A DNA stretch of 64,000 nucleotides. Source: Myxococcota bacterium. Its GTDB lineage: Bacteria; Myxococcota_A; UBA796; CAJQPC01. The notes under the pieces were generated by a model. It worked only from the letters and a program-made list of their open reading frames with translations, made no database searches and was not told the origin of the DNA. Position 1 is the first letter of the stretch. Each line of letters opens with the position of its first letter. Below, piece after piece: positions 6,523 through 64,000 of the stretch. The position numbers and the translations under genes were made by a program. The stretch spans positions 1 through 64,000 of the forward strand of contig DASCPX010000047.1 of assembly GCA_036012755.1 (NCBI GenBank), written 5' to 3'.

Positions 6523-7376
6523 TGCTGACGACGGAGGAGCTGAAGCAGATCCGGCGCATCAGCCTCCAGGCCGGCCGACGGGTCGATTCGCTCTTCGCCG
6601 GGGGCTACCGCTCGGCCTTTCGGGGGCGGGGCATGGAGTTCGAGGAGGTGCGGCCCTACGTGCCTGGAGACGACGTGCGCCACATCGACTGGAACGTCAC
6701 GGCCCGAAGCGCTGACGAAGTCTTCGTGAAGGAGTTCCACGAGGAGCGCGAGCTCACGTTGATGCTCGCGCTCGACTGCTCCGGGTCCATGGCCTTCGGG
6801 TCCGAGACCGACAAGCGCCTGCAGATGGCTCGGCTCGCCGGAGGGCTGGCATACGCGGCGATCCGGAACGACGACCGGGTCGGGCTCTGCGTCTTCACGG
6901 ATCAGATCGAGCTCTTCGTCCCCCCTCGGAAGTCCCGTGGCCATGCCTGGAGGGTGATCCGCGAGGTCTTCGAGCATCGCCCGGCGCGCGCAGGGACCGA
7001 CGTCATGGGGGCCGCCGAGCACCTCGGAAAGGTCTTGAAGCGCCGCGCGGTCGTCTGCTTCATCAGCGACTTCCTCGTCTACCAGGACACCCGGCGCGCC
7101 ATGGCTTCGTTGGCCTCCCGGCACCGGGTGCACGGCTTCGTCCTGCACGACCCGTTGGAGGCGCGGCCCCCACGTGGATCTGGTCTCGTCGAGGTCGTCG
7201 ACTCCGAGACCGGCCAGGGTCGCCTCGTCGAGCTCTCGTCCTTTCGAGGCGCCCTGGGGGTCGACGCGCGGGTCGCAATGCTGCGCCGGGCGGGCACGTA
7301 CGCATCAGCCGTGAGCACGACGCAGGACCCTTTCCGCGTGCTGTTGTCCCACTTCGAGCGAGTGGCACACCGGTGA
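6522..7376 (+). CDS. DUF58 vWA-like protein
   Basis: GMEFEEVRPYVPGDDVRHIDW, DCSGSM; follows moxR. Confidence 0.92.
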
Positions 7377-8167
7377 TCCTGCTGTTGGCATGCACCCCTA
7401 GGCTGGGCGAGCTCCGCGAAGGCCCGGTCGTCCAGACCCGGATCGAGGTGGGCGATGCCATCGTCGTCCACGTGGCCGCCCCCGGCGCGGACGGGATCGA
7501 ACTCGTCGAGCACGAGGAACTCACGGTCGATGTCCTCGAGGTCTCGGACGGCGCCTGGGATGTCACCTACAGCGGGCCGCCCGGCTCCTATGTGATCGAG
7601 GGTGTGCGCGTGCACCTCGGCGAGGAGATCGTGGAGGGGCCCCGGCACTTCGTCGATCTCGGCGTCGACGGCCCCCGCTCCGAGCTCGAGCCGCTCGCCA
7701 GCCTGGCGCCCCCGGTCGAGCGGCCCCTGTGGCCGTGGTTCCTTGGGCTGGCGCTGACCGGCTTCGTCACCGGCGCTGGCATCACGGGTTTCCTCGTCTG
7801 GAAGAACCGGGACACCAGCGAGCCACCGCCGCCGCCGGTCCCGCCGGACGTGGAGGCGCTGAAGGCGTGGGCCGCCGCGCTGACCCGGGGGCTGGACGAC
7901 CACGCCCTGGCGCTGGAGCTCTCGGCGATCTTCCGCCGCTACCTCGAGCGCATCACCGGGTTCCCCGCGACGGCGCTGACCTCGCCAGAGGTCCTCGATG
8001 TCTGCGGCCGGGTCGACGGCCTCGACCGCGACATGGCCAAGCGCCTCTTGATGGCGACCGACCTCATCAAGTTCGCGCGAGAGCAGGGCAGCCGCGAGCT
8101 CTTCGAGGAGCTCGGCCAGGGCCTCCGCGACATAGTCATCTCCACTCGACCCCCGCCCGAGCAATGA
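7373..8167 (+). CDS. Bat-operon membrane protein (DUF4381-like position)
   Basis: Single TM segment, IFRRYLE and DLIKFA motifs, operon position; coupled overlaps at both ends. Confidence 0.7.
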   Translation: MILLLACTPRLGELREGPVVQTRIEVGDAIVVHVAAPGADGIELVEHEELTVDVLEVSDGAWDVTYSGPPGSYVIEGVRVHLGEEIVEGPRHFVDLGVDGPRSELEPLASLAPPVERPLWPWFLGLALTGFVTGAGITGFLVWKNRDTSEPPPPPVPPDVEALKAWAAALTRGLDDHALALELSAIFRRYLERITGFPATALTSPEVLDVCGRVDGLDRDMAKRLLMATDLIKFAREQGSRELFEELGQGLRDIVISTRPPPEQ

Positions 8168-9156: not shown

Positions 9157-10907
9157 GCTGCGCGGCTGGACAGTTCCTCCACCTCGGCTGGGCGCTGCCA
9201 GTGCTGGTGCTGTTGGCCTTCTGGGCTTCCCGTCGCCGTCGCCGCGATCTCCGCCGACTCTTCGGTGACCGCGTCGAGGTCGTCGTCACGCCGGGTCTGG
9301 AGGCTCGGCGCGCATGGTCCATCACCCTGGTGCTGATCGGTGTGGCGGCCTGTGTCTTCGCCGCTGTCCAGCCGCGCTGGGGCTTCACCTGGAGGGACCT
9401 CGAGAGCCGCGGCGTCGAGATCGTCGTCGCCATGGACCTCTCTCGCTCGATGGACGCGCAGGATGTCGATCCCAGCCGCCTCACCCGGGCGAAGCGAGAG
9501 GTCGTCGACCTCGTCCAGGAGCTCCACGGAGATCGGGTCGGCCTCGTCGTCTTTGCTGGGGGGGCCTACCCCAGGGTGCCCCTGACGGTCGACTACGACG
9601 CCCTCCTCCACATCGTCGAGTCCTGCGAGACCTCCACGCTGCTGGCCCAGGGGAGCTCTCTCGACTCGGCGATCTCGACCAGCCTCGAGCTCCTCGGCGA
9701 GGCCGGCGAGGCAGACCAGGCGATCGTCGTGCTCTCCGACGGCGAGGACCACACAGAGGGTCTCGACGAGGTCATCGCCGAAGCGAAGGCCGCCGGTGTC
9801 CGCATCTACGCCGTCGGGATCGGCACTGATCGTGGCGCCCCGGTCCCGAGGGCGGACGGTGGCTTCGTGTCCTACTCCGGAGAGGTCGTCGTCAGTCGCC
9901 TCCAGGAGGACGCGCTGCGCGAGCTCGCGGCAGGGACCGGTGGGGCCTACGTGCGCTCCTCTGCGGGGGCCTCCGACGTGAAAGGGCTCGCAGCGGACCT
10001 CCACGCCGCCCTCACCAGGCAGGCCATCGAGGTCCGCAAGGAGAAGGTCTGGGACGAGCGCTACCAGTGGCCGCTGGGCTTCGGGCTCGCGCTGATCGTG
10101 CTCGGCATGGGGCTCGGCGACGGCAGGAAGCGCTCCGCGGTGGTCCTCGCGCTGCTCCTGGTCGCGGCCCCGGCTCGAGCATCCGAGGTCGACCTGGGAC
10201 CAGCCGAGCTGCTCATGTCCCAGGGGCGCTACGACGAGGCCGTCACGGAGCTGGAGCGCCTCCAGGCCGAGGACCCGCTTGATCCGCGCGTCGCCTGGGC
10301 ACTCGCGGGGGCACGCTATGGTGCCGGGGATGCCACCGGGGCGGCCAGGGACTTCGAGGATCTCGCCGAGCGCATGCCCGAGGAGGCGGACCGAGTCGAG
10401 GCGCTCTACAACGCGGGCAACGCTCGCTACCGCGCCGGGGAGCTGGAAGATGCCGTCGGCGACTGGCAGCAGGTCTTGGCGGAGGACCCGGAGCACGAGG
10501 CCGCCCAGCACAACGCGGAGCGCGTGAGCCAGGAGATCCTGAGGCGCACGCAGGACCCTCCCGACCAGCAGCAGGGTCAGGGCGACGGCGGCGAAGGACA
10601 GCAGCAGGACGGACAGCCAGGCGGCGACACGGGCGAGAGCTCGGAGAGCTCGGAGACGGAAGGCTCGGATGGCACCAACGAGCACGAGGGACGAAAAGGC
10701 GAGGGCGAGCGTGACTCGGGGCTGGAGCAGCTCACGGAGGCGCTGCAGTCCGGCGAGCCAGGCGCGGAGTCCGAAGATCCCGGGACCCCTCGCCCCTACG
10801 GCGTCGAGGAGATGTCGGAGGAGGAGGCGCGGAGGCTGCTCGACGGGGTAGATGAGGGCACGCCGCGCGTCACTGTGCGCGGCCAGTCGTCGGGGAAGGA
10901 CTGGTGA
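9153..10907 (+). CDS. BatB-like vWA protein fused to BatC-like TPR region
   Basis: MIDAS DLSRS, PLTVDY, LSDGED, then TPR (ALYNAGNARY), Q/E-rich linker, MSEEEARRLL...KDW end. Confidence 0.85.
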   Translation: MSCAAGQFLHLGWALPVLVLLAFWASRRRRRDLRRLFGDRVEVVVTPGLEARRAWSITLVLIGVAACVFAAVQPRWGFTWRDLESRGVEIVVAMDLSRSMDAQDVDPSRLTRAKREVVDLVQELHGDRVGLVVFAGGAYPRVPLTVDYDALLHIVESCETSTLLAQGSSLDSAISTSLELLGEAGEADQAIVVLSDGEDHTEGLDEVIAEAKAAGVRIYAVGIGTDRGAPVPRADGGFVSYSGEVVVSRLQEDALRELAAGTGGAYVRSSAGASDVKGLAADLHAALTRQAIEVRKEKVWDERYQWPLGFGLALIVLGMGLGDGRKRSAVVLALLLVAAPARASEVDLGPAELLMSQGRYDEAVTELERLQAEDPLDPRVAWALAGARYGAGDATGAARDFEDLAERMPEEADRVEALYNAGNARYRAGELEDAVGDWQQVLAEDPEHEAAQHNAERVSQEILRRTQDPPDQQQGQGDGGEGQQQDGQPGGDTGESSESSETEGSDGTNEHEGRKGEGERDSGLEQLTEALQSGEPGAESEDPGTPRPYGVEEMSEEEARRLLDGVDEGTPRVTVRGQSSGKDW

Positions 10908-12526
10908 GCTTCATCGTCGCCATCGTCGCCCCCGTCAGCGCCGCCCAGGTGCTCCTGGACGCTGACAGCCAGCGTCTCCAGGTGGGCCAGAGCGTCGGCC
11001 TGCACGTGACCGTGGTCGACGGCAGCAGCAGCCGCCCGGAGCTGCCGGAGGTGGAGGGGCTCCGCTTCGTCCCCGCCGGCCAGCAGGTCGGCTTCCAGAT
11101 GCTCAACTTCAAGAACATCAAGACCGTCACCTACAGCTGGCAGCTCACAGCCGAGCAGGAGGGCAGCTTCGGCATCCCGAGCGTGCCGGTCGAGGTCGAC
11201 GGCACCACCCTCTACAGCAACCCCCTGAGGCTCAGCGTCAGCTCCCGAGAGGCCACCGAGGGCGAGGTCATCGAAGCCACGCTCTCGAGCGGTGAGTCCA
11301 CCCTCTGGGTCGGCCAGACGGTCGTGTACGACCTCCGCTTCGCGACGCCCAAGCGCATGGTCGACCGGCGATGGACACCCCCCAGCTTCGAGGGCATGGT
11401 CAGCGAGCAGGGCACCGAGCGCCGCGTCCGCGAGTACCAGGCAGCCATCGACGGCGAGCCCCACGAGATGATCGAGGTCTCCGAGCCCCTCGTCATCACG
11501 GCCGCCGGGCGTCGGAACATCGCCCCCAGCGTCTTCACGGTCCAGTACGCCCTGCGCAGCGGCCGCCAGAGCCGCGACCCGCTGGGCTTCGGAGCCTTCG
11601 TCGAGACAAAGACAGAGGTCTTCACATCAGAGGCGCTCCCGATCGACGTCCTGGAGCTCCCGGCAGAGGGCCGGATCGACGAGCTCTGGACTGGACTGGT
11701 AGGGGACTTCTCCCTGACCGCAGAGCTGAGCGAGGAGCGCGTGGCCCTGGGCGAGTCCGCGACCCTCGAGGTGGTGATCGTGGGCGACGGAAGCCTGGCC
11801 GGCTTCGAGCTGCCGGTCCTCGAGGAGCGAGATGGCTACCGCGTGTACGACGACGAGGCAGAGGTCGAAGCCGAGATCGTCGAGGGACGCTTCCTGACCA
11901 AGGGCGTCTATCGGCGCGCCATCGTGCCTGAGTCAGTCGGGCGCATCGACATCGACCCGGTGGAGCTCCAGGTCTTCGATCCGAGCGCGGGCAGCTACCG
12001 CCTGATCCGCAGCGAGCCCGCTGTCCTGGACGTCACCGAGGGCGAGGCCGTCGGTACCCTGGAGTCCTTCAGCGACGGCGAGGTCGATGCCCGCCGCGAC
12101 GTGAAGGATCTCGGCGAGGACATCCTCCCCATCAAGACGAGCCCCTCGGGTCAGAGCGGTGTCTTCTCGCCCTGGATGTTCCTGTGGTTCGGGGTCATCC
12201 CCGGTCTGGCCTTTTGCGGTGTCCTCGGAGGGAGCTGGCTTCGGTCCCGGAGCCAGCTCGTCGACCCCCGGACGGAGCTGAGGCGGCGGCTCGCCGCGCT
12301 CCCGGACGACCTCGCCGAGATCGAGGACGTCTACCGCGAGTCCCTGGCCCTCCACCTCGGCGTCTCGGCAGCGGGGATCGAGAAGAGGGACCTCGCCCAG
12401 CTCCCTGCGGGTCTCCGCGAGCGCTGCGAGTCGCTCTACACCGAGCTCGAGGCGGCACGCTACGGCGGGGCCGGGGGCGATCTGCGAGGCCGGGTCGTGC
12501 AGATCTGCGAGGAGCTGGTCCCATGA
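10904..12526 (+). CDS. batD: BatD-like protein
   Basis: Signal-like N-terminus, beta-rich repeats, GLVGDFSL, late TM segment; operon position. Confidence 0.8.
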   Translation: MSFIVAIVAPVSAAQVLLDADSQRLQVGQSVGLHVTVVDGSSSRPELPEVEGLRFVPAGQQVGFQMLNFKNIKTVTYSWQLTAEQEGSFGIPSVPVEVDGTTLYSNPLRLSVSSREATEGEVIEATLSSGESTLWVGQTVVYDLRFATPKRMVDRRWTPPSFEGMVSEQGTERRVREYQAAIDGEPHEMIEVSEPLVITAAGRRNIAPSVFTVQYALRSGRQSRDPLGFGAFVETKTEVFTSEALPIDVLELPAEGRIDELWTGLVGDFSLTAELSEERVALGESATLEVVIVGDGSLAGFELPVLEERDGYRVYDDEAEVEAEIVEGRFLTKGVYRRAIVPESVGRIDIDPVELQVFDPSAGSYRLIRSEPAVLDVTEGEAVGTLESFSDGEVDARRDVKDLGEDILPIKTSPSGQSGVFSPWMFLWFGVIPGLAFCGVLGGSWLRSRSQLVDPRTELRRRLAALPDDLAEIEDVYRESLALHLGVSAAGIEKRDLAQLPAGLRERCESLYTELEAARYGGAGGDLRGRVVQICEELVP

Positions 12527-13209
12527 TGCTGCTGTCGACTGCGCTGGCGTTGGCCGGCGACGCGAACGAGGCCTGGGCTGCTGGTGACCATGCCACCGCC
12601 CTGAGCGAGTGGGAGCACCAGATCGAAGAGGGTGATCGCTCGGGCGACCTCTACTACAACGTCGGCAACGCGCACTACCAGCTGGGCGAGCTGCCCGAGG
12701 CCATCCTCGCCTGGCGCTCGGCGCAGCTCTTGTCGCCACGCGACGGAGACATCGAAGCCAACCTCGCCAGCGTGCGAAAGCTGACCACGGACCGCATCGA
12801 GCCGGCTCCGTCCAGGAGCCCGGTGCTCTTCTGGCGGACCTCGTTGTCCGCGGCGGAGCAGGGCTGGGCCGCTTGCCTGCTGATGGCGGCGTTCTGGGCC
12901 ATCTGCGTTCTCTGGCGCTTTCGCCGAGTCTCTTTGGGCATCCCTGCGGTGCTCACGGGCGTCCCCGGTCTCCTGCTGACCGTCTCGACCCTGCAGACCC
13001 TCGGCGAGCTCGGCACCGCCGGCGTTGTGCTGGCCGAGGCAGAGGTCCGGAGCACCGCCTCCGGGGGCGTGGTGCTCTTCGAGCTGCATCCGGGGGCCGA
13101 GGTCCAGCTGGGTGACGGGCTCGGTGACAACGTGCTCGTCTCGTTGCCGGACGGTCGCAAGGGATGGATGCCGGCGGCCTCGCTGGGGGTCGTCGACCCG
13201 AGGCGTTAA
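12523..13209 (+). CDS. batE: BatE-like TPR + SH3-like protein
   Basis: LYYNVGNAHY TPR, two TM segments, LFELHPG...LPDGRKGW. Confidence 0.82.
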   Translation: MMLLSTALALAGDANEAWAAGDHATALSEWEHQIEEGDRSGDLYYNVGNAHYQLGELPEAILAWRSAQLLSPRDGDIEANLASVRKLTTDRIEPAPSRSPVLFWRTSLSAAEQGWAACLLMAAFWAICVLWRFRRVSLGIPAVLTGVPGLLLTVSTLQTLGELGTAGVVLAEAEVRSTASGGVVLFELHPGAEVQLGDGLGDNVLVSLPDGRKGWMPAASLGVVDPRR

Positions 13210-13231: not shown

Positions 13232-13744
13232 ATGCGTCACGCCCTCGTCTTCGTCCTCGCTCTGCTCGCCTTCTCGGGCTGCGGCTACGAGCGCCACATG
13301 AAGCGCCTGTCCGACGTCGAGTTCGACCACTACTACGCGCTGCGGCCCTACATGAACGAGGACTCCCGCAAGACCTACCTCAAGCTGAAGACGGAAGAGG
13401 AGCGGAACCAGTTCCTGAAGGACAAGGGGCTGTGGGATCGCTTCTACAAGTACGACCAGGAGGCCCGCGACTCCATCGTCGCTGGCGATGTCCAGGTCGG
13501 CTGGACCAAGGACAAGGTGTTGATGGCCTGGGGAAGGCCCTACGACAAGCAGAAGCTGGCGGGCCGGGAGGCCCAGCGCAGCGAGCGCCTGGTCTACCGC
13601 TTCGAGAAGCACGAGGACGGCTCGATCCTCGTCTGGGAGGCCAACTCGAAGACCGAGTACAAGGCGGTCCAGCTCTTCCAGCGGGACGTGCTGCTCGACG
13701 ACGACGTCGTGGCCGAGATCAGCCAGCGGGACCGCTGGGAGTAG
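13232..13744 (+). CDS. Lipoprotein of unknown function
   Basis: Canonical lipobox (FSGC, Cys17); GWTKDKVLMAWGRP resembles the SmpA/BamE-type motif. Confidence 0.7.
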   Translation: MRHALVFVLALLAFSGCGYERHMKRLSDVEFDHYYALRPYMNEDSRKTYLKLKTEEERNQFLKDKGLWDRFYKYDQEARDSIVAGDVQVGWTKDKVLMAWGRPYDKQKLAGREAQRSERLVYRFEKHEDGSILVWEANSKTEYKAVQLFQRDVLLDDDVVAEISQRDRWE

Positions 13745-18040: not shown

Positions 18041-18775
18041 GTGTTCATTTTTCTCATCGCCTGTGCCGGCTCGAAGGACATCGATGGCATCTGGGCCATC
18101 CTGATCCCGGGCGCCGTCGAAGCGGACTGCTCGGAGAGCATCTCCCACAACTTCACCGACGCTTTCGTGCCCGACGACGACGAGGACTCCGACCAGCCCT
18201 TCGTGAGCGAGCAGGAGACCGAGAGCTCCGAGGCGATGCAGCTGATCCAGATCACGCGCCACTCCAAGCGCGAGGCGACCCTGATCAAGGGCACCCGTGC
18301 CTACCCCGGCAGCCTCGGGGACAACGGCGCGTGGAAGTTCGAGTGGGGGGGCAACGACATCACGACGACGACCCAGACGCACCAGGATGGCTACGACTAC
18401 ACCGCCGACGAGGACGTCACGACCACGACCACGATCAGGCTGACCAAGAACAAGGAGACCGTCGGTGGGACCTGGACCGGTGTCACGCACACGATCGCCG
18501 GGTACACGGAGACCGACGCCTGGAGCAGCGAGATCACAGAGGTGGGTGACCGCGGGCAGATCCCCAGCGCGCTCTACCTCATCACCGATGTCACCGGCGC
18601 GGAGCGCCCTGCCGAGAACGAGCGGGACTTCGCGGAGTGCAGCGGGAGCGACTGTGAGCTCGACCTCGACATCACCTGTACGTCCGAGCGCGAGTACTCC
18701 GGATGGCGCACCGGATACGACGACGAGGACGCCTATGGCCACCTCGGCGCGGTCGGGCAGCCGGCGGGGGGATGA
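18041..18775 (+). CDS. Acidic putative lipoprotein
   Basis: RBS AGGAGG, MFIFLIAC start, GC3-rich codons. Confidence 0.7.
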   Translation: MFIFLIACAGSKDIDGIWAILIPGAVEADCSESISHNFTDAFVPDDDEDSDQPFVSEQETESSEAMQLIQITRHSKREATLIKGTRAYPGSLGDNGAWKFEWGGNDITTTTQTHQDGYDYTADEDVTTTTTIRLTKNKETVGGTWTGVTHTIAGYTETDAWSSEITEVGDRGQIPSALYLITDVTGAERPAENERDFAECSGSDCELDLDITCTSEREYSGWRTGYDDEDAYGHLGAVGQPAGG

Positions 18776-42440: not shown

Positions 42441-42441
42441 C

Positions 42442-46397: not shown

Positions 46398-48845
46398 TCA
46401 GAGCTCGACCTGTACGACCATGCCCAGGGGGGCCTGGTAGGTCGTGGTGTTGTAGAAGTCGCTGTAGGTGTCGCCGACAGAGCCCAGGTCGTCGTAGCTG
46501 GATGCGTAGGCGTAGCCGTAGGCCTCGCCGAAGCCAGCCTCGGTGTTCGTGCTCGCGGTGTCGAAGTAGTAGGTCGTCGTCGCGCAGTCCATGGCCCAGG
46601 CCAGGGCGTAGTAGGTGCCGCTGGTGACCTCGTAGTCCACCGAGACGCTGTGCCAGCCGGCGCTCGTGGAGAGGGTGTCGCCTGTGTCCTTCCACTCGAC
46701 GACCCAGCCGCTCAAGCTGGTGGGGGCGGTGGCTCTCGACAGGATGTAGTAGTCGATGGTGCAGCCCGACGTGGACCCCGACGCGTAGACCTCGAAGGAG
46801 CTGATCGTGTCGTCCGTGTCCGCGAGGAAGGTGTTCGCCCAGACGTCGGTGCCCGTGCTGCTGGAGGTCGTGCCGCCCAGGTCGTAGCTGCTCACGCAGC
46901 CGTCGTCGTCGCAGACGAAGCTCTCGTCGTCGGCGAGGCCGTCCCAGGTGTCGCCCTGCCAGGAGAGGTCGTTGTCCGAGTTGTCGAAGTCGCAGTCGGT
47001 CGCGGTGAACTCGGCTCCGCTGGAGGTGGTGTAGACCGCGCCGTAGGTGGTGTCGCTGCTGCCGTTGGTGAAGCCGAGGCCGGAGACCGTGTCGTCGCCG
47101 ACGCACTCCACCGTCGTGTTGGTGTAGAGGTAGCCGCCGGAGATGCCGCCGGCGGCGGTGTTGCTGTCCATCTCGGTGTCCTCGATGTAGAGGTCCGAGC
47201 CGCCGTCGCTGGACGCGTAGGCATAGAAGATGCCGCCGTACAATGACGCCGCGTTGGACTCCAAGAAGGAGTCGTAGAACTCGACCGAGGCCTCATCCAG
47301 CCAGATTGCGGCTGCATAGCTGGCCGTGTTGTTCGAGACGGTGACGCCGTCGAAGGTCCCGGTGCACTCGTAGATGGCGATGCCGCCGCCCAGCTCGGCG
47401 TCGTTGCTGTCGAAGACCACGTTGTCGGCGCTCACCGTGCTGGCGCCTGTGCAAGCGAGGCCTCCACCGCCCTCCCAGCTCGTGCTGGTGCCGAAGATGC
47501 CTCCGTTGTCTCCCGAGCCGGCCTGGACGGTCAGGTCGCTGATGCTCACGGCCACGCCGTCGGCGTCGATGTCGATGACGGTCCCTGTCGCGGCGCCGTC
47601 GAGAACCACCGCGGTCTCGTCCCCGGAGGCCCCGACGATGTCGACGTCAGCCTCGACGTCGAGGTTCACGTACCAGGTGCCGTCGCAGAGGTTCAGCGTG
47701 CCGTCGGTCGACAGGGTGACGTCCGCCGGCGTGGAGGACGAGCCCGTCAGCGTCGAGGTGTAGTCGGTGGTCGCGCTGCCGTCGTCGAAGAGCGCCGTGC
47801 CGTCCTCGCTGGTCGAGCTGTCGCAGTCGTCGTCGACCCCGTTGCAGGTCTCAGTGGCGCCGGGGTTCACGCTGTCGTCGCTGTCGTCGCAGTCGTCCGC
47901 GACGTCGACGTAGCCGGAGGGCTGGTCACAGGTGATGGTGCTCGTCGCCGGTGTGCCGTAGCCGTCGCTGTCGCTGTCGAGGTACCACTTCGTCACGTCG
48001 ACGGCGTCGTCCTCGTCGATGTCCCCGTCGCAGTCGTCGTCGTGGCCGTCGCAGTACTCGTCGGCGTCGGGGTTGGTGTCCTCGTCCGTGTCGTCGCAGT
48101 CGTTGCTGTTGTCGGTGAAGCCGGAGGGCTGGTCACAGGCCACGTCCGTCACCGCCGAGGAGCCGAAGCCGTCCTTGTCCTTGTCGCCGTACCAGGTCGA
48201 GGCGTCGACGGCGTCGTCCTCGTCGATGTCCCCGTCGCAGTCGTCGTCGTGGCCGTCGCAGTACTCGTCGGCGTCGGGGTTGGTGTCCGCGTCCCCATCG
48301 TCGCAGTCGGTGTCGTCCTCGACGAAGCCGCTGGGTGCGTCGCAGGCGTCCTCGCTGAGACCGGCGCTCCCGAAGCCGTCCCCGTCGCCATCGGCGTACC
48401 AGGTCGTGGCGTCGATCGCGTCCTCGTCGATCTCGCTGTCGCAGTCGTCGTCCTCGCCGTTGCAGACCTCGTCCGCCCCGGGGAACTGCAGGGCGTCGCC
48501 GTCGTCGCAGTCGTCCGCGTTGTCGCTCGAGCCCGATGGGGCCTCGCAGGTCCACTGCTCGTCGCCTGCGCCGTAGCCGTCGCCGTCACCGTCGACGTAG
48601 GAGCTCACACCCGTCGAGGTGTCCACGCTGTCGTCGTCGTCGTCGACGAGCTCGTCGCAGTCGTTGTCGATCCCGTCGCAGACCTCTGCCGCGTCGGGGT
48701 TGATCGCAGCGTCGTCGTCGTTGCAGTCGTCTTCGACGGTGTACCCGTCCTGGTCCGCGTCGGTGGGGCCGGTGACGCCGCTGTCGCCGCTGTCGTCTCC
48801 GGCGGGGGTCTTGTTGCAGGCGAGGGCGATGAGGATGGTGAGCAT
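46398..48845 (-). CDS. Surface lipoprotein with five MopE-type Cys/Asp repeats and a beta-helix-like region
   Basis: Repeated DCDD-x5-P-x3-ExCxGxDxDCD; GGGI/NNTA beta-helix-type motifs. Confidence 0.88.
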   Translation of the reverse strand: MLTILIALACNKTPAGDDSGDSGVTGPTDADQDGYTVEDDCNDDDAAINPDAAEVCDGIDNDCDELVDDDDDSVDTSTGVSSYVDGDGDGYGAGDEQWTCEAPSGSSDNADDCDDGDALQFPGADEVCNGEDDDCDSEIDEDAIDATTWYADGDGDGFGSAGLSEDACDAPSGFVEDDTDCDDGDADTNPDADEYCDGHDDDCDGDIDEDDAVDASTWYGDKDKDGFGSSAVTDVACDQPSGFTDNSNDCDDTDEDTNPDADEYCDGHDDDCDGDIDEDDAVDVTKWYLDSDSDGYGTPATSTITCDQPSGYVDVADDCDDSDDSVNPGATETCNGVDDDCDSSTSEDGTALFDDGSATTDYTSTLTGSSSTPADVTLSTDGTLNLCDGTWYVNLDVEADVDIVGASGDETAVVLDGAATGTVIDIDADGVAVSISDLTVQAGSGDNGGIFGTSTSWEGGGGLACTGASTVSADNVVFDSNDAELGGGIAIYECTGTFDGVTVSNNTASYAAAIWLDEASVEFYDSFLESNAASLYGGIFYAYASSDGGSDLYIEDTEMDSNTAAGGISGGYLYTNTTVECVGDDTVSGLGFTNGSSDTTYGAVYTTSSGAEFTATDCDFDNSDNDLSWQGDTWDGLADDESFVCDDDGCVSSYDLGGTTSSSTGTDVWANTFLADTDDTISSFEVYASGSTSGCTIDYYILSRATAPTSLSGWVVEWKDTGDTLSTSAGWHSVSVDYEVTSGTYYALAWAMDCATTTYYFDTASTNTEAGFGEAYGYAYASSYDDLGSVGDTYSDFYNTTTYQAPLGMVVQVEL

Positions 48846-48890: not shown

Positions 48891-49843
48891 TCAGAGGTTG
48901 CACCCGTCGTCGCAGCTGAAGGTCTCGTCCGCCCCGAGCCCGGTGTGCTCCGTGCCGTTCCAGTCCACGTCGATGCCCGTGTTGTCGAAGTCGCAGTTCG
49001 TCGCGCTGAACTCCGCGCCGCTCTCGTTCCAGGTGAAGATCACGCCGTAGCTGGTGTCGGTGCTGCCGGTGAAGCCCAGGCCCGTGCTCGATGGGTCGCC
49101 CACCACTCCACCGAGGAGTTCTTGGAGATGCGCCCCCCGGGCATGCCGGTCGTCGCCGTGTTGCCGTCCATCTCCGTGTCCTCGAAGTAGATCTCCGAGC
49201 CGCCCCCCGAGTAGTAGCTGTAGGCGTAGAAGACCCCGCCGTAGACGGCCCGGTTCGTCTCGATGAAGGAGTCGTAGAACTCGGCGGAGGCGTCGTCGGT
49301 CCAGATGGCGCCGCCGTAGCTGCCCGTGCTGTTGGACACGGTGACGTTCTCGAAGGTGACGCTGCACTCGTAGAGCCCGATGGCGCCGCCGTAGCTGCCC
49401 GTGCAGCTGTCGACGACCACGTTGTCCAGGCTGACGTCGCTGGAGCCGGTGCAGTCGGTGCCCGGTGCGACCCAGCCAGAGTAAGCCTCGCAGGCCTCGC
49501 GGCTGTCCTCCGGGTCGCCGAAGCCGTCGTCGGTCTCCGAGCTCTCGGAGGGCCTCGCGCAGGCCCACAGGAGGACTCCTGCGCCGAAGCCGTCTCCGTC
49601 TCCGTCCGCGTAGAAGCTCACCCCCGAGGTGGTGTCGAAGTCGTCAGCGTCGTCGACGAGGTCGTCGCAGTCGTTGTCGACGCCGTCGCAGACCTCGCTC
49701 GCCTCGGGGTGGATCGCGGGGTCGTCGTCGTTGCAGTCGAGGTCCGAGGCGAAGCCGTCGTTGTCCTCGTCCGACACGCTGGTGGCGCTGTCTTCGCCGG
49801 GTGTCTTGTTGCAGGCGATCGCGATGAGGGCGGCGAGCAACAT
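48891..49843 (-). pseudogene. Shortened, frameshifted paralog of the MopE-repeat protein
   Basis: Shares ACNKTP start and beta-helix block; 1-nt loss at 49104-49105 (TG where the paralog has TGC). Confidence 0.75.
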
Positions 49844-49884
49844 CTCGGCTCCACGGAGGCGGCCAGAGCCTACCGCCCGCGGGC

Positions 49885-51284: not shown

Positions 51285-51370
51285 CCCCCTTTCATCTCAC
51301 GGAATCGAGGGGGCGTCCACGTGGATTCTCTGTGCTGTCCGGCGAGGACGTCGGTCGATATTGGTCCGCC

Positions 51371-53473
51371 ATGTTGCTCTCCATCGCCGCCGCTCTGTCC
51401 GCAGAGCCCCACTTCTCCTACCCCAAGCTCGTCACCGCCAACGGCTACGGCGTGGCGGTGCTCAACGGCGCGAACGACGGGGGCGTGGTCCTCGATGTCT
51501 TCTCCGACCACCTCTACCAGCAGTACTCCGCGGACGACGAGCCGACTCGGGACCTGCTCTGGGACACCTACTTCGGCCTCCGCGCCGAGGGGGACTCCGG
51601 CTGGCTCACCGACTCCGCCTCCTACCAGACCCTGGCGGGCACGGGCGTGCTCGAGATCGACCGGTCCCGCGGCTCGCTGCTCATCACCGAGTACGCCTTC
51701 GCCTCCATGCAGGACGACAGCCCGGCGCTGGTCCACTTGCTGCGGGTCGAGAACCCCACCGGCGATGCCCTCGACGCCGAGCTCTTCCTGCTCGAGAACT
51801 TCCACGTCGGCGACAGCACCAGCGAGAACGAGGCGATCCAGCCCGAGGGCGAGGGGCTCGTCCTCTGGGGCGAGAACACCGGGCTGACGATGCACTTCTC
51901 TCCGCTGGTCACGCCGAGCAGGACGGACTGCTCGCCGAACGACCCCTGGTACGCGGTCAACGAGGGCTGGGACCTCGATGAGTGCTCCTACTCCGCCGGA
52001 GACGACCGGATCGGCGCCTTCCAGTGGAGCCTCGTCCTGGACGCTGGCGCTGTCGAGTGGATCGGTGTCGTCGATCACTTCGGCGACGGCGAGGTGCTCT
52101 CCGGTGACCCCGAGACCCTCTTGGACGAGGAGATCGCCTGGTGGCAGGCCTGGCACGACGAGGGCGAGCCCGCCTACGGGCTCACCGACGAGGAGTACGA
52201 GGTCTACTACCAGGCCCTGGCCTACCTGAAGATGAGCCAGGTGCGCGAAGAGGGCGATGCCTACGGGCAGATCCCTGCATCGCTGCCCCTGTCGGCTCCG
52301 GTCGGCGAGTTCCAGCACATCTGGAACATCAGCTGGGTCCGGGACGGGGCCTACGCCATCCGCGCGCTCACCGCCGCGGGCCACTACCCAGAGGCTCGCG
52401 CCGCCCTGGCCTTCCAGGTCCAGCCAGGCAAGACCGGGGACTGGGTCAGCTACGTCGGCGGCATGGACCACGCCCTGTCGATCTGCCGCATCTACGGCAA
52501 CGGCGACGAGTGGACCGACGTCGATGACGATGGCCCCAACATCGAGTTCGACAACTTCGGGCTCTACCTCTGGGCCTTCGGCGCCTATGTCCGCGCCACG
52601 AACGACGTGTCCTTCGCGGAGGAGCACGAAGAGGCGCTGCTCGACAAGACCGCTGACGTGCTCGTCGTGCTCGTCGATCCCTCGACCGGACTGATCACCG
52701 CCGACAGCTCGATCTGGGAGCGCCACTGGAACGGCAACCAGAAGCAGTTCACGTACACCTCTGCGTGGGCGGTGCGCGGCCTGCGAGAGGCGACCTACCT
52801 GGCCGAGAAGCTCAGCGACGCGCGGTCCGTGACCTACAGCGAAGAGGCCGACGCGCTGGCGGCAGCCATCGAGCAGCACCTCGTGCGAGACGACGGCGTG
52901 CTCGTGGGCAACCTCGAGGAGCACACCGCCAGCGATCCGGCCATGGACCTCGCCGCGGTGGACGCCTTCAACAACGGCGCGCTCGACGTCGGCGGCGAGT
53001 CCTTCTCTGCCTCGATGGAGGCCTGGGAGCGCGACCTGGGCCTGGCCAGCGGTCCGGGCTTCAAGCGCAACGACGACGGTGACCTCTACGACGAGCAGGA
53101 GTGGATCATGGTTGATTTGCGCGTCGCCGAGGCCCTGCGGAGGGCTTGCCGGGACGACGAGGCCGCGGAGATCGAGGACTGGGTCACGGAGCAGGCCCAG
53201 GCCAACCACCTCATCGTGCCCGAGCTGCTGGAGCCGACCAGCGCCGACTACGCCGGACCTGCGCCGATGATGGGCTTCGGCAGCGGGCTCTACGTGCTCC
53301 AGATGCACACCCGCGAGACCGACTACTGCTCCGGCGACACCGGGCCCGACGACACCGGCGGTGACACGGACGACCCGGGCGGCGCCACCCACCCGGACTG
53401 CGGCTGCTCGGCGACGGCCCTGCCGGCCTCGCTCGCACTCCTTCCACTCCTGCTGCTGAGGAGGCGTCGGTGA
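51371..53473 (+). CDS. GH15-like glucoamylase with MYXO-CTERM-type sorting tail
   Basis: SWVRDG, DSSIWE, IVPE; ends GCSA...LLPLLLLRRRR. Confidence 0.8.
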   Translation: MLLSIAAALSAEPHFSYPKLVTANGYGVAVLNGANDGGVVLDVFSDHLYQQYSADDEPTRDLLWDTYFGLRAEGDSGWLTDSASYQTLAGTGVLEIDRSRGSLLITEYAFASMQDDSPALVHLLRVENPTGDALDAELFLLENFHVGDSTSENEAIQPEGEGLVLWGENTGLTMHFSPLVTPSRTDCSPNDPWYAVNEGWDLDECSYSAGDDRIGAFQWSLVLDAGAVEWIGVVDHFGDGEVLSGDPETLLDEEIAWWQAWHDEGEPAYGLTDEEYEVYYQALAYLKMSQVREEGDAYGQIPASLPLSAPVGEFQHIWNISWVRDGAYAIRALTAAGHYPEARAALAFQVQPGKTGDWVSYVGGMDHALSICRIYGNGDEWTDVDDDGPNIEFDNFGLYLWAFGAYVRATNDVSFAEEHEEALLDKTADVLVVLVDPSTGLITADSSIWERHWNGNQKQFTYTSAWAVRGLREATYLAEKLSDARSVTYSEEADALAAAIEQHLVRDDGVLVGNLEEHTASDPAMDLAAVDAFNNGALDVGGESFSASMEAWERDLGLASGPGFKRNDDGDLYDEQEWIMVDLRVAEALRRACRDDEAAEIEDWVTEQAQANHLIVPELLEPTSADYAGPAPMMGFGSGLYVLQMHTRETDYCSGDTGPDDTGGDTDDPGGATHPDCGCSATALPASLALLPLLLLRRRR

Positions 53474-55314
53474 CGTTCCTGCTGCTGTCCTGCATCGACC
53501 CGAGCATCTACGCCCAGTCACCCCAGCTCGAGACCCACGTCGACGACTGGCGCGACGAGGTCGTCTACCAGCTCATGGTCGACCGCTTCGCCAACGGCGA
53601 CGTGAACAACGACTACAACGTCACCCAGAACCCGGACGTCATGGCTCGCTACCTCGGCGGCGACTACCAGGGCGTCATCGACAAGGTCGACTACCTCGTC
53701 GAGCTGGGCGTCACGGCGGTCTGGGTCTCGCCGGTGGTGGTGAACGTCGAAGAGGACGCCGGGGTCTCCAGCTACCACGGCTACTGGACCCAGGACTTCA
53801 AGGGCGTGAACCCGCACTTCGGGGACCTCGCGAAGTTCCGCCAGATGGTCCGAGTGCTGCACGCCAACGGCATCCTGGTCATCCTCGACATCGTCGCGAA
53901 CCACGTCGGGCAGCTCTTCTACTACGACATCAACCGCAACGGGCAGGCGGACATCACCCAGTACGGCTCGGGCAAGGACGGCGACGAGCTCTCGATCATC
54001 ATGGAGTGGGACCCCGCCTACGACGAGCGCGGAGTCCAGGGGTGGACCTCGCTCGGAGAGAGCGGCGACGCCCCGGTCGGCTGGGTCTACATGCCGGAGC
54101 TCAACCGGCTGCCTCCCGAGCCCGCCGTGTTCCACGATGAGGCCTTCTACAACCGGCGCGGGCGCGTGACCGACTGGAACGTGCGCCACCAGGTCGAGAA
54201 GGGGGACTTCCCGGGGGGGCTCAAGGACCTCGACACCCTCAACCCGGACGTGCTCGAGGCGCTGATCGACGTCTTCACCTACTGGATCGTCGAGACGGAC
54301 ATCGACGGCTACCGCATCGACACCCTCAAGCACATCGAGAACGACTTCTGGCAGGAGTTCGCCCCCGCCATCCGCCAGAACGCCGCGGCGGCTGGAAAGG
54401 ACAACTTCCTGATGTTCGGCGAGGCCTTCGACGGCTCCGACGCGCTCATCGGGAGCTACACCTGTGACACTCGCTCGGGGAAGCTCGGCTGGTACCCCTA
54501 CGAGTCCTCTGACGGGCAGTACGTCGGCTGCGACCACGCCGACAACCTCGGCGGCGAGGACTACCAGGGCGTCGACTCGGTCTTCTACTTCAGCCAGAAG
54601 TTCCAGGTCTTCGACGACGTCTTCAAGTACGGCGGTCCCACCTCGAAGATCGAGAGCCTCTACTCCGAGCGGGACCTCCACTACGGCCAGGCGCCGAAGG
54701 CCCACGGCGCCGGTCAGGCTCCTCGGGACATCCTCGTCAACTTCGTCGACAACCACGACATTCCGCGCTTCCTCTACGACAATCCCTCGGTCCCGGCGCT
54801 CAAGAACTCCCTGTTCTACCTGCTCACAGAGGACGGCGTTCCGTGCATCTACTACGGGACCGAGCAGGCCTTCTCCGGTGGCAACGACCCCGCGAACCGC
54901 GAGCCCCTTTGGTGGTCGGGCTACGACACCGACGGCGACGTCTTCCTCCACACCCAGTCCCTGATCCGGCTGCGGAAGGCCTACGAGCCGCTTCGGCGCG
55001 GCCGCTTCTCCGTGGCCTGGGCCAGTGACCGGGTCGACAGCGAGAGCGACGCAGGCATCTTCGCCTTCGAGCGCTCGTCCGCCGAGGGGACCGCGCTGGT
55101 GGTGGTCAACACCCACGACGACCAGGTCAGCCAGACCAGCTTCGAGGTCTACGGCATGCCCGTCTCCTTCGCCGCGGGCACCACCCTGGTCGAGATCTGG
55201 CCAGAGGGCTCCGACCGCACCTTCACCGTCGACTCGGCGGGCGAGGTCGTGGTGGATGTTTCTCCCCGAGGAGGCTCGGTGCTCGTTCCCGAGAGCGAGG
55301 TGGTGAGCTACTGA
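53470..55314 (+). CDS. GH13 alpha-amylase-family lipoprotein
   Basis: DWRDEVVYQLMVDRF, YHGYW, GYRIDTLKH, GEAF, FVDNHD. Confidence 0.93.
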   Translation: MTFLLLSCIDPSIYAQSPQLETHVDDWRDEVVYQLMVDRFANGDVNNDYNVTQNPDVMARYLGGDYQGVIDKVDYLVELGVTAVWVSPVVVNVEEDAGVSSYHGYWTQDFKGVNPHFGDLAKFRQMVRVLHANGILVILDIVANHVGQLFYYDINRNGQADITQYGSGKDGDELSIIMEWDPAYDERGVQGWTSLGESGDAPVGWVYMPELNRLPPEPAVFHDEAFYNRRGRVTDWNVRHQVEKGDFPGGLKDLDTLNPDVLEALIDVFTYWIVETDIDGYRIDTLKHIENDFWQEFAPAIRQNAAAAGKDNFLMFGEAFDGSDALIGSYTCDTRSGKLGWYPYESSDGQYVGCDHADNLGGEDYQGVDSVFYFSQKFQVFDDVFKYGGPTSKIESLYSERDLHYGQAPKAHGAGQAPRDILVNFVDNHDIPRFLYDNPSVPALKNSLFYLLTEDGVPCIYYGTEQAFSGGNDPANREPLWWSGYDTDGDVFLHTQSLIRLRKAYEPLRRGRFSVAWASDRVDSESDAGIFAFERSSAEGTALVVVNTHDDQVSQTSFEVYGMPVSFAAGTTLVEIWPEGSDRTFTVDSAGEVVVDVSPRGGSVLVPESEVVSY

Positions 55315-55335
55315 TCCGGGAGCTACGTTCTCGCG

Positions 55336-55878
55336 ATGCTGCTTCTCCTGGCCTGCACCACGTTCACAGTGAACGACGACAGCGGCGATTCCGTGGGCGG
55401 GACCGGTGACCCCTCCGGCGACCTCGACTGCGACGCTGACTACGACTTCAGCGAGCCGGCGGGCCCCGACTGCATCACCGGCGTGCTCCACTGCGGCGAC
55501 GTCATCGAAGGGCACACCCGCGGCGGGTCCTCGGGGATGGACTCGGAGTTCTACCGGTCCGCCTTCTGCTTCGTCCCGTACACGGCCTACGACGGCCCCG
55601 AGCGCGTCTACGAGCTCGAGCTCGAGGCCGACACAGAGGCTACGGTCACCCTCGAGGCCCCCTGCTCGGATCTCGGCTTTGCAGCCGCCCGGTGGTCGGA
55701 CGAGGACGTCTGTCCCAGCGGAGATGACCACGCGATCCTCGACTGCAACGGCGCGGCCGCGGACTCCGTCAGCGACACGAAGTCCAACACCTTCTGGGCG
55801 GAGAAGGCCACCCGCTTCATCGTCGCTGTAGATGGGGCCTCGCCTGCTGCCTACAGGCTCACCGTCGAGTGTGAGTGA
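55336..55878 (+). CDS. Cys-rich putative lipoprotein
   Basis: MLLLLAC; GPERVY..., FIVAVDG...YRLTVEC resembles PPC-like beta-sandwich modules. Confidence 0.7.
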   Translation: MLLLLACTTFTVNDDSGDSVGGTGDPSGDLDCDADYDFSEPAGPDCITGVLHCGDVIEGHTRGGSSGMDSEFYRSAFCFVPYTAYDGPERVYELELEADTEATVTLEAPCSDLGFAAARWSDEDVCPSGDDHAILDCNGAAADSVSDTKSNTFWAEKATRFIVAVDGASPAAYRLTVECE

Positions 55879-62039: not shown

Positions 62040-62065
62040 CGCGGGCCGAGTGTACGCTCCGACTG

Positions 62066-62968
62066 GTGTTCTTCCTGCTGGCCTGTAGCCGCTACGCGGC
62101 CCCGGATCTCCCAGAGGGGAGCTGGTCTCTCCGCGGCGATGACGTCGTTGGGCAGCTCGAGACCTCCAGGGGCTCGTGCATCGTGAACCTGAGGGCGGAG
62201 CGCTGGGGGACCGGCGGGCCCGTGGACTGCCAGTCCCACGAGGTCCCTGGCCGCTTCGTCTTCCCGATCCAGCTCGGCGTCGGCGAGGCCCTGGCCGTGG
62301 CGGACTGGAAGGGCGAGGTCGTGGTCGTGCCACTGAGCTCGCTGGAGGGCTGGCTCGAGGTCGAACTCAGGGTGGAGGAGGGGGTCGTGGACGTGCCGCC
62401 CTTCGAGGCGGACACTGCCTCCTGGTCCGCCGGGAGCTTCGTGCTCCATGGACACGAGGGCGTCGAAGGCCGGCTGGAGATGGCCTCTCTCGAGATCGAG
62501 CTCTTCTCTGCTCGGCTGTTGACCGACGGGCTGGTCTCCTACGCCACGGAAGAACGAGGGGCCGACCTGGCGCTGCAGGTGGAGGTGGAGCCCAGCCTCG
62601 GGGATCCTGCGATGCTGCTCTTGAACCTGCCGACGGGCCAGCTGGCGCTCCCCGGCGGGCCTCATCCGTGGACGGCGACGTTGGAGCCGGGGGTGGTGGA
62701 GGATCCAGGACAGCGGCGAGCCGCGGCGATCGCGGCTGCGGACGCGGCCGAGGCCGAGCAGATGAAGGCAGTGCTGGCGGCGCTGATGGCCGAGCTCAGC
62801 CCGCCGTGCCTGCTGTCCGATGACTGGACTCCCTACTTCGAGGGCTATGCCCTGACCCTCGAAGAGCGCGACGGCGCCTGTGTGATCGCGGTGGAGCCCG
62901 ACCCGGTCCAGCACCGGAGACGGTTCAGGTACTCCTCGGAGGTTCCGCCGGCTAGGATGGCGCCATGA
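62066..62968 (+). CDS. Putative lipoprotein
   Basis: MFFLLAC start, 300-aa ORF. Confidence 0.65.
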   Translation: MFFLLACSRYAAPDLPEGSWSLRGDDVVGQLETSRGSCIVNLRAERWGTGGPVDCQSHEVPGRFVFPIQLGVGEALAVADWKGEVVVVPLSSLEGWLEVELRVEEGVVDVPPFEADTASWSAGSFVLHGHEGVEGRLEMASLEIELFSARLLTDGLVSYATEERGADLALQVEVEPSLGDPAMLLLNLPTGQLALPGGPHPWTATLEPGVVEDPGQRRAAAIAAADAAEAEQMKAVLAALMAELSPPCLLSDDWTPYFEGYALTLEERDGACVIAVEPDPVQHRRRFRYSSEVPPARMAP

Positions 62969-64000
62969 CACTGCTCTTGTCCCTGTCCTGTACCAAGCCA
63001 GCTGTCCCCGTCGGGGATGACTCCTCCGTGGACAGCTCCGTCGAGGACAGCTCCGTCGAGGACACGGACCAGCGCCCGGAGTGGGAGCGGGTGGCGACCT
63101 CCTACGGCGTGCTGACCACCGTCGCCGGCAAGGGGGAGTTCTCGACCAAGAGCTACAACGGCTGGGACGAGAGCTACGAAGGCGGGGACGCGCTCGAGGC
63201 CGAGCTCTCGCGGCCGCACATGGCCCTGACGGACGCCGAGGGGAACATCTACATCGCCGACAAGGACGCCCACGCCGTCCGCAAGGTCGACACCGACGGC
63301 GTCATCACGACGGTGGCGGGGAACGGCAGCGCGGGGGACGGCGGGGACGACCCCGCCCCGGGCACCGAGCAGCCCCTGAGCTCACCCAACGGCATCTGGG
63401 TGCTGCCGGATGGCACCGTCTACATCCACGACATGGGCAACGACAAGGTCCGCAAGCTGGACACGGACGGCGAGCTCACGACGCTGTTCTCCGTGGCCGA
63501 CGCGGGCACTGGCCGCGGGCTCTGGGTCGCAGAGGACGAGTCCCTGGCCTACGTCTCCTGTGGCTCCATCCTCCGCAGTTGGACCCCGGACGGAGGCTCC
63601 GAGGTCCACGCCAGGGGCTTCTCCTCGCTCGGCAACCTGGTCATCGACCCCGACGGACTGGTGGTCGCCGCGGACCGTGGCGGACACACGGTCACCCGCA
63701 TCGAGGCGGACGGGACCAAGGTCCTCATCGCTGGCAACGGCACGACCACCGGCGGCGGAGACGGGGAGCCCGCGCTGGAGACTGGCCTGGGCGAGGCCCG
63801 CGGGGTCTGGTTCCACCCCCTCGGCGGCTACTTCGTGGCCACCCACCAGGGGGGGCAGATCTGGTACGTCGACACCGACGGCATCATCCACCTCTTCATC
63901 GACGGGGACGACGAGCACAGCCACTCCGGCGACGGCGAGGACTACGACACCCAGGGCAAGAAGATCAGCGAGCCCCGGGCGATCACGATGGACGGCGAGG
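62965..64000 (+). CDS. NHL-repeat beta-propeller lipoprotein (runs off the window; absent from the ORF track)
   Basis: Translated by eye: MTLLLSLSC...GNIYIADKDAHAVRKVDTDGVITTVAGNG...PNGIWVLPDGTVYI. Confidence 0.85.
   Translation, partial: MTLLLSLSCTKPAVPVGDDSSVDSSVEDSSVEDTDQRPEWERVATSYGVLTTVAGKGEFSTKSYNGWDESYEGGDALEAELSRPHMALTDAEGNIYIADKDAHAVRKVDTDGVITTVAGNGSAGDGGDDPAPGTEQPLSSPNGIWVLPDGTVYIHDMGNDKVRKLDTDGELTTLFSVADAGTGRGLWVAEDESLAYVSCGSILRSWTPDGGSEVHARGFSSLGNLVIDPDGLVVAADRGGHTVTRIEADGTKVLIAGNGTTTGGGDGEPALETGLGEARGVWFHPLGGYFVATHQGGQIWYVDTDGIIHLFIDGDDEHSHSGDGEDYDTQGKKISEPRAITMDGE

Follow-up and report, generated by a model that had tools for sequence, protein, structure and literature searches.

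Canonical lipoprotein signals have an h-region of about 7-22 residues and place the lipobox Cys roughly at residue 15-35. In E. coli, prl suppressor mutations of SecY, SecE or SecA allow proteins to be exported despite a defective signal. Leaderless mRNAs for which a TANNNT -10 box stands at a constant distance before the start codon are known from Actinobacteria and Deinococcus. Sec signals are tripartite, with n-, h- and c-regions and a basic n-region, according to the relevant part of a review (PMC9360617). The G+LPPv3 lipoprotein pattern, as given in an extract of its source, consists of a Lys or Arg and then 6-20 residues before the lipobox (PMC13068155). The subject of this article is a set of short, mostly uncharged N-terminal leaders encoded in a 64,000-nucleotide stretch of DNA from a Myxococcota bacterium (the window; NCBI GenBank assembly GCA_036012755.1, contig DASCPX010000047.1, positions 1 to 64,000 of the forward strand) and throughout the genome to which it belongs, that of an uncultured, myxobacterium-like organism of marine origin. 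We read these leaders as a variant on known Sec-type signals that is real and most likely functional. The analysis covers the sequences and their start sites, how far they are conserved and how they are distributed among genomes, and the gene inventory. A search of the full-text literature, the coverage of which excludes most subscription journals, turned up no paper that describes such leaders.

The leaders fall into two classes, each of which can be set against a described type of signal. Like the Lpp-type lipoprotein signals of E. coli (G+LPPv3; PROSITE PS51257), leaders of the first class end in an L-[AS]-[GA]-C lipobox with an invariant Cys, the genome encodes Lgt and LspA, and the early mature region is a flexible-looking, acidic linker rich in Ser, Gly and Pro. 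Unlike the Lpp-type signals, they lack an n-region with Lys or Arg, and the Cys is found at residue 7-13 and not at about 15-35. The second class resembles the tripartite Sec signals cleaved by signal peptidase I (SPase I) in its hydrophobic core and in the small residues at -3 and -1. It differs from them in a total length of 9-16 residues and in the absence of the n-region. Signal engineering in E. coli has described a trade-off between hydrophobicity, length and charge (Chou and Kendall, 1990; Hikita and Mizushima, 1992), and the short cores described here are likewise twice as Leu-rich as canonical ones. What differs from the engineered signals is that hundreds of genes have, in nature, given up both charge and length at once. 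A translocon that tolerates sub-standard signals, as in the prl strains, would act in the way proposed here, but no prl-like change was found and SecY is single-copy and conserved.

Frequency and start sites of the short leaders

The assembly comprises 6.73 Mb in 250 contigs, and the window corresponds to bases 1-64000 of contig C47, across which G+C is 66-70%. Lists of open reading frames are noisy at high G+C. Therefore, genes were called by codon log-odds with a caller self-trained on the genome, which gave 5855 genes at a coding density of 92%. Protein families are Pfam matches, and counts of Lgt and LspA are matches above the Pfam cut-off. The first-start test takes, for every gene (n = 5698), the earliest ATG, GTG or TTG after the upstream in-frame stop. 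The short lipobox pattern is defined as Met, then only uncharged residues, then [AGS]-Cys, with the Cys at residue 7-13, and start codons more than 50 codons inside genes serve as the internal control. This pattern is found at 424 of the 5698 first possible starts (7.4%), with a modal Cys position of residue 8, against 197 of 82579 internal start codons (0.24%). The count makes the short lipobox starts, which a first-pass annotation had noticed in the window, a property of the whole genome.

Other counts were made as well. A looser, earlier one gave 488 genes with a short start only, 444 ambiguous genes and 168 with a long start only. The DNA pattern ATG(NTN)4GSNTGY occurs 50 times in the genome and its reversed control once, while the (NTN)5 form occurs 48 times and its reversed control not at all. 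The lipobox of the 424 genes has Leu at -3 (frequency 0.59) and at -2 (0.63), and Ala (0.71), Gly (0.15) or Ser (0.14) at -1 before the Cys, where position -1 and the Cys are fixed by the pattern. Neither the basic n-region nor the length of a classical lipoprotein signal is seen: Lys or Arg is present in 46 of 547 short leaders collected with a relaxed pattern, and the Cys positions fall below the canonical range. Alongside the short leaders, the genome has about 87-176 lipoproteins with leaders of 14-29 residues that bear Lys or Arg.

The short leaders are genuine N-termini rather than truncated ones, as the first-pass annotation had argued. The Cys lies no later than the 12th codon after the upstream in-frame stop in 110 of the 424 genes, so in these no start codon of any kind could yield a leader of normal length. 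The upstream stops are TGA in 256 genes, TAG in 130 and TAA in 38. This is a genome-like mix, and hence stop recoding is not the answer. Upstream starts and recoded stops were both rejected on these two grounds, and the short starts themselves are marked either by a -10 box at a fixed distance or by a Shine-Dalgarno (SD)-like motif.

The hexamer TANNNT peaks at exactly -12 from the start codon, where it is found in 73 of 423 short-leader genes, against 0-17 genes at each of the other offsets from -25 to -6. A reference set of 2088 genes with confident starts has it at -12 in 143, and over the whole genome about 6% of genes have a hexamer whose first base is exactly 12 nt ahead of the start codon. 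The commonest -10 hexamers are TAGACT, TAGGCT and TAGGAT, the TAG of which is the in-frame stop four codons upstream in many short-leader genes. Since there is no peak at other in-frame offsets, the hexamer is a -10 element at a set position rather than a by-product of the stop codons. SD-like motifs precede 19% of the short-leader genes with a box and 56% of those without one (a 4-mer in the latter figure), against an internal background of 23%. With the hexamer 12 nt before ATG or GTG and the depletion of SD-like motifs, these genes resemble those with leaderless mRNAs, a likeness that is read here from sequence alone. It suggests that leaderless transcription is frequent in this genome.

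A second set of starts was defined by TANNNT at -12 near the onset of coding, without looking at the protein. It contains 336 genes, 93 of them lipoprotein-like. Of the 93, 88 have their Cys no later than residue 13 (mode 8), and a single one of these 88 leaders has a Lys or Arg. SPase I-like leaders of 9-13 residues are included too, for example MLFVALASA|EP and MLLIATAFA|QD. When canonical-leader lipoprotein genes are taken as the comparison, a -10 box at -13 to -11 is present in 3 of 87 of them and in 95 of 423 short-leader genes, and TANNNT at exactly -12 is 8-fold enriched in the short-leader genes. To our knowledge, such an enrichment of the -10 box on short-leader lipoprotein genes has no prior description.

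Exported families and their homologues

The seven short leaders of SPase I type that had been read from the window are all present, with starts at 26618, 12523, 40880, 51371, 44450, 33629 and 10904. SurA has the uncharged leader (V)IALFGLLSVAEA (26618..26656, plus strand), with Pfam matches to SurA_N and rotamase and a single start candidate. BatD begins with (V)SFIVAIVAPVSA (10904..10942, plus; Pfam) and a TPR protein of the same Bat operon with MMLLSTALALA (12523..12555, plus; Pfam). The leader MSLLPLLALANA belongs to a beta-propeller protein of PF09826 (44450..44485, plus; Pfam), and MLLSIAAALSA to a GH15-like protein (51371..51403, plus; Pfam) for which there is an alternative GTG at 51332. 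Two further leaders on the minus strand, MLLLVSLSLA (40851..40880) and (V)LHLLSASALA (33597..33629), are known from the start call. A LamB-type porin begins with MGSVLLLLPTLAFA (43036..43077, plus; Pfam); if translation started at the alternative ATG at 43000, its leader would have an Arg-rich n-region in addition. Outside the window, BamA begins with the uncharged leader MIHLLLAFWIALAQS|G, and OmpA-domain proteins elsewhere in the genome have uncharged leaders as well. These SPase I-type leaders have 9-16 residues and no Lys or Arg, and so lack the basic n-region and the length of about 18-30 residues of a classical signal. They keep the hydrophobic core and, after it, small residues at -3 and -1 (SurA ...VAEA|E, BamA ...ALAQS|G, OmpA-domain ...GLAQA|Q). 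The observation that short leaders occur on proteins that must be exported holds for SurA, BamA, the LamB-type porin, the OmpA-domain proteins and BatD.

The best BamD/YfiO homologue of the genome (G000:C149:39926-40537) begins with MFALLLTLSLPAVAA|KNQ, which is likewise an uncharged leader in the range of 9-16 residues, and has no lipobox Cys. It looks soluble or SPase I-processed, and not like a lipoprotein.

The families behind the lipobox leaders were sampled by a random draw of 36 of the 74 strict short-lipobox proteins that have 180-420 residues and are encoded outside the window. At a Pfam threshold of E <= 1e-5, 20 of the 36 have a match. The families include MopE (6 proteins), sulfatase, GH114, arylsulfotransferase (ASST), metallophosphatase, C-type lectin, PQQ_2, Kelch, RCC1, PI-PLC-X and others, and no housekeeping cytoplasmic family was found among these 20 matched proteins.

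For conservation, the GH13 lipoprotein encoded at 53470 was compared with its 120 best homologues in public data, which come from many independent assemblies. The lipobox Cys is kept in 117 of the 120 and lies 16 residues before a conserved DDWRDE motif in 104, and its distance to the catalytic domain hardly varies, behind short and canonical leaders alike. The leaders of these homologues are bimodal in length: the Cys comes no later than residue 11 in 56 (55 of them without Lys or Arg), at 12-14 in 23 (8 without) and at 15 or later in 38 (2 without). The same mature N-terminus thus stands behind either a canonical or a minimal leader, which is hard to reconcile with a non-functional short form. 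SurA orthologues at seven loci in metagenome-assembled genomes (MAGs) have leaders from 12 to about 30 residues, such as one of 24 residues that begins MKRW. One of these orthologues has a 12-residue uncharged leader with six open codons upstream. Homologue P0106, assigned by its source to Persicimonas caeni, a cultured species, begins with MLLLLALLVGVSGC, an uncharged 13-residue leader without Lys or Arg. It is a possible experimental entry point.

Export machinery, distribution and mechanism

The first-pass annotation had suggested that either the machinery of this lineage accepts minimal leaders or an extra export pathway exists, and had named SecA, SecY, Ffh, Lgt, LspA and LepB as places to look for divergence or paralogues. 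Five genomes of one family were compared: the genome under study (G000), G014, G202, G162 and G182. G000 has a tandem lspA-lspA-lgt-lgt cluster (G000:C59:100000-102591) and three further lgt genes, which makes two LspA and five Lgt in total. Four family members compared have one or two LspA and four or five Lgt copies, with similar numbers in members with a strong and a weak trait. The Lgt tree has four clades common to all five genomes and, in addition, divergent extra copies in G000, G014 and also G182. All 61 genomes of the order that were searched have 2-6 Lgt matches irrespective of the trait, and tandem lgt-lgt pairs are also found in G062, G072, G112 and G056, where pattern counts are low. 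A trait-specific extra Lgt or LspA paralogue was rejected as an explanation on these grounds. Each of the five genomes has one SecY and one SecA (the SecA matches of G182 are fragments on two contigs), and SPase I matches number 3 in G000 and 5, 5, 5 and 1 in the others. Across these five genomes, no extra SecY, SecA or SPase I follows the trait. SecY is 69-80% identical among the five family members, with G000 closest to G202, and its alignment to E. coli SecY is full-length with nothing obviously unusual. The motifs that we take to form the SecY pore ring are kept, or are changed conservatively as in G182, in which the trait is weak. Hence there is no sign of an extra export pathway, and no divergence or paralogue that follows the trait was seen in the components inspected.

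The distribution of the trait was surveyed by counting the (NTN)4 DNA pattern, which sees the Cys at residue 7 only, in 401 genomes of the phylum. The count is 50 in G000, 34 in G014 (same family, other genus), 0-8 in the other family members and 2-18 in family f6 of the same order. Elsewhere in the phylum it is mostly 0-5 with a maximum of 12. The pattern under-counts because it misses leaders that are one to four residues longer; G162 has a count of 0 by pattern and 10 of 181 genes by gene sampling. The latter applied the first-start test with self-trained callers to 58-280 kb from each of eight genomes. Genes with a short start only amount to 9 of 95 (9.5%) in G014, 5 of 89 (5.6%) in G202, 10 of 181 (5.5%) in G162 and 3 of 216 (1.4%) in G182, and TANNNT is at -12 in 8.4%, 5.6%, 5.5% and 2.3% of genes in the same order. 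G387, which belongs to family f6, has 7 of 150 (4.7%) and TANNNT at -12 in 8.0%. The values are 0 of 40 and 7.5% in G007 (same class), 0 of 134 and 1.5% in G013 (same phylum) and 1 of 153 and 0.7% in G176 (same phylum). Canonical lipoproteins make up 12-13% in the distant genomes sampled. The short-leader trait is graded across the order, reaches its extreme in G000 and is close to absent from the sampled genomes that are more distant. TANNNT at -12 varies in frequency roughly along with it, with the exception of G007, where the sample is small. Related genomes are not independent, so these correlations between trait and box are associations only.

Export, cleavage, lipidation and any compensating features are deduced from these data. 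The leaders are, in our judgement, probably genuine functional minimal Sec-type signals, and they would most likely use the ordinary single SecYEG/SecA and then Lgt/LspA or SPase I. That the Sec/Lgt/LspA/LepB machinery accepts minimal leaders, which the first-pass annotation had put forward, would be the most economical account. The architecture consists of fMet and a Leu-rich core of about 4-6 residues, followed directly by the lipobox ([AGS]-Cys) or by a small-x-small SPase I site, with no basic n-region. The Leu fraction is 0.47 for the short leaders and 0.24 for the canonical ones that this genome also encodes, and a very high hydrophobicity of the core may compensate for the absent charge and length. 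A free or formylated N-terminus may do so too. Mature residues +2 to +16 of the short-leader proteins have a net charge of -2.2, against -0.8 for internal 15-mers, and are rich in Pro, Gly, Ser and Thr. Such an acidic, Pro/Gly/Ser-rich and probably unstructured start of the mature protein could give the correct charge difference across the core. Since both classes of signal are shortened, the tolerance is probably located in the membrane or at a step of targeting or translocation that both have in common, and less likely in Lgt, LspA or LepB. The -10 box occupies the place where n-region codons would be, which suggests that shifts of the start site may have trimmed the leaders. The data also suggest that the trait is linked to frequent leaderless transcription. 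A bolder form of this account is tentative and somewhat doubtful: that the n-h-c signal is dispensable for Sec export, that fMet and five or six Leu-rich residues suffice for the targeting, translocation, lipidation and cleavage of hundreds of proteins, and that the minimisation was driven by the spread of leaderless promoters, with their -10 box in place of the n-region codons. If true, the specificity of the Sec and signal recognition particle (SRP) system or of the membrane would be relaxed in a way not described before, as a counterpart in nature to the prl suppressor states, and one could test directly how small a signal peptide can be and still function.

Several points weigh against functional minimal signals. 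A core of five or six residues is too short for a helix that spans the bilayer, and its fit into Lgt and LspA lacks an explanation. The E. coli work of Hikita and Mizushima is said, by its title, to have found that an absent N-terminal charge is offset by a longer hydrophobic stretch. The SecY columns that separate G000 and G014 from G162 and G182 are few and conservative, and no oddity in the machinery was found that would explain the tolerance. The acidic early region occurs equally in canonical-leader lipoproteins (net charge -2.1). It is thus a background property, and was ruled out as a compensation specific to short leaders. A heuristic for SPase I-type short leaders finds 171 of 5693 first starts against a background of 1.46%, a 2-fold enrichment, so that this class rests on the named exported families and not on statistics. 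One of the 36 drawn proteins is a false start ahead of a rhodanese gene. N-termini of public homologues are gene calls of other pipelines, or open-frame readings, and single ones may be wrong. The gene caller and the signal rules are custom-built for this analysis and are not SignalP or LipoP.

It is barely credible that the starts are mis-assigned, with true initiation at non-canonical codons upstream or through a recoded stop. The distance from stop to Cys exceeds 20 codons in 209 of the 424 genes, which makes an upstream non-canonical start formally possible there, and the window genes at 30057, 43036 and 51371 have alternative upstream starts. The upstream stops nevertheless largely refute this explanation: it leaves the 110 genes with a Cys within 12 codons of a stop, and the three stops in genome-like proportions, without an answer. 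The short starts are the ones marked by the -10 box at 12 nt and by SD-like motifs, coding potential sets in at the short start, and the upstream stretches, when translated, are rich in Arg, Pro and Gly and resemble non-coding sequence. A related doubt accepts the starts but not the cleavage. The short N-termini would then be uncleaved anchors at the membrane interface, or the proteins would be cytoplasmic and the Cys would have another role. A core of five or six residues is indeed below any experimentally validated signal that is generally known. SurA, BamA, the porin and the OmpA-domain proteins must nonetheless cross the inner membrane, the lipobox fits the classical consensus from -3 to +1, the Cys is in a fixed place in orthologues with canonical leaders, and the families that came up are of kinds usually secreted or placed at the surface. 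Uncleaved anchors or cytoplasmic proteins of this sort are very unlikely.

A third possibility is that the leaders are real and need more than the standard route, such as obligatory co-translational targeting of the very hydrophobic core by SRP, help from YidC, a dedicated paralogue of Lgt or LspA, or some additional factor. The affinity of SRP goes up as the h-region becomes more hydrophobic, according to an extract of the source (PMC5427057), and the cores are extremely Leu-rich. The two LspA and five Lgt genes, with divergent long-branch copies beside the lsp-lgt cluster in G000 and G014, would also agree with it. We consider such a route unlikely, given that multiple Lgt copies are universal in the 61 genomes of the order and that the tandem pairs recur in genomes with low counts. 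Lgt or LspA paralogues cannot account for the shortening of SPase I-type leaders, and no gene specific to the strong trait turned up in a search of which genome-wide phylogenetic profiling was not a part. Minimal signals that use the ordinary Sec machinery remain the preferred reading.

About 7% of the genes in this genome have a lipoprotein-type leader that breaks rules of charge and length learned mostly from model organisms. Rules of the G+LPPv3 type demand a Lys or Arg and 6-20 residues, in the extract of their source, and would therefore miss these short-leader proteins (PMC13068155). The first-pass expectation that predictors under-call such leaders would thus hold for published rule-based patterns of this type. 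Predictions of the secretome and lipoproteome are probably too low for this order and for the many marine MAGs whose GH13 homologues share such leaders. Among these genes, orthologous mature proteins are found behind leaders that grade naturally from canonical ones down to 6 residues. This series can be used to ask what the minimal Sec/Lgt/LspA substrate is, whether the N-terminal charge is dispensable and whether leaderless transcription shapes N-termini.

Leaders and gene neighbourhoods in the window

All 12 short lipobox starts that the first-pass annotation had listed in the window are present; seven are plus-strand and five minus-strand starts, and the Cys is at residue 7-11. Its description of the leaders as mostly uncharged is right for lipobox leaders generally, but the leader MKAMMLLLAC (30426..30455, minus) has one Lys. 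That gene has an in-frame stop immediately before its ATG (0 codons) and is a paralogue of the gene at 29526. Most of the starts indeed have no in-frame start upstream, except for (L)LLALSGC (30034..30057, minus), a member of the same small paralogue family with a TTG start. It is ambiguous, as an alternative GTG lies 11 codons upstream at 30090.

Four short lipobox starts have a 4-nt overlap with the preceding gene's stop. The leader (V)ILLLAC (7373..7393, plus; GTG start) belongs to a lipoprotein of the Bat operon that has no Pfam match. The upstream gene is a DUF58 gene, and there is no in-frame ATG, GTG or TTG in 219 open codons upstream. The other three are (V)IWIIAC (30849..30869, minus; GTG start), (V)TFLLLSC of the GH13 alpha-amylase lipoprotein (53470..53493, plus; Pfam and conservation of the Cys in homologues) and MTLLLSLSC of an NHL-repeat protein (62965..62991, plus; Pfam). 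The last is 3 codons past an in-frame stop and has TAGGAT at 62953-62958. TANNNT 12-13 nt upstream is also found at MLLLLAC (55336..55356, plus; the -10-like TACGTT is at 55324-55329), which is 7 codons from an in-frame stop, and at (V)FFLLAC (62066..62086, plus; the -10-like TACGCT is at 62053-62058). SD-like motifs precede the leader at 53470 and four others. The leader (V)FIFLIAC (18041..18064, plus; GTG start) has GAGGA 11 nt upstream and 12 start-free open codons. MLALFFLSAC (37344..37373, plus; Pfam) begins a GH13 alpha-amylase with a CBM48 module. MLTILIALAC (48816..48845, minus; Pfam) begins an 815-aa MopE-repeat protein, with an in-frame stop 15 codons upstream, and MLLAALIAIAC (49811..49843, minus; Pfam and paralogy) begins a MopE-motif protein that is a paralogue of the one at 48845.

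Canonical-type leaders coexist with the short ones in the window, as had been reported, and three serve as contrast cases. These are the lipoprotein leader MRHALVFVLALLAFSGC (13232..13282, plus), MRTTWILLAFGLVAC of a PpiC-type rotamase lipoprotein (25605..25649, plus; Pfam) and MKKILLIAGGTLALTAC (29476..29526, minus). The third confirms that the two kinds of leader are found within one paralogue family, in which the canonical leader at 29526 stands beside short ones at 28874, 30057 and 30455. The family belongs to a tandem array of proteins of 137-192 aa without Pfam match (28404-30869, minus), of which four are demonstrable paralogues with leaders from MKKILLIAGGTLALTAC down to 8-10 residues. 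A TANNNT hexamer is found at 28881-28886 on the minus strand.

Two neighbourhoods contain many of these genes. A Bat/MoxR-type operon (5530-13209, plus) encodes an AAA_3 MoxR ATPase, a DUF58 protein, the lipoprotein at 7373, two VWA proteins, BatD and the TPR protein, with 4-nt overlaps of gene ends. A probable alpha-glucan utilisation neighbourhood (37344-55314) contains the two GH13 lipoproteins (one with CBM48), the LamB-type porin, the PF09826 beta-propeller protein and the GH15-like protein, all of which have short leaders. By eye, a chaperone block (21-5513) has GroEL and GroES on the minus strand and then DnaK and DnaJ on the plus strand, and a large Ser/Thr-kinase-like gene occupies 58506-62039 on the minus strand.

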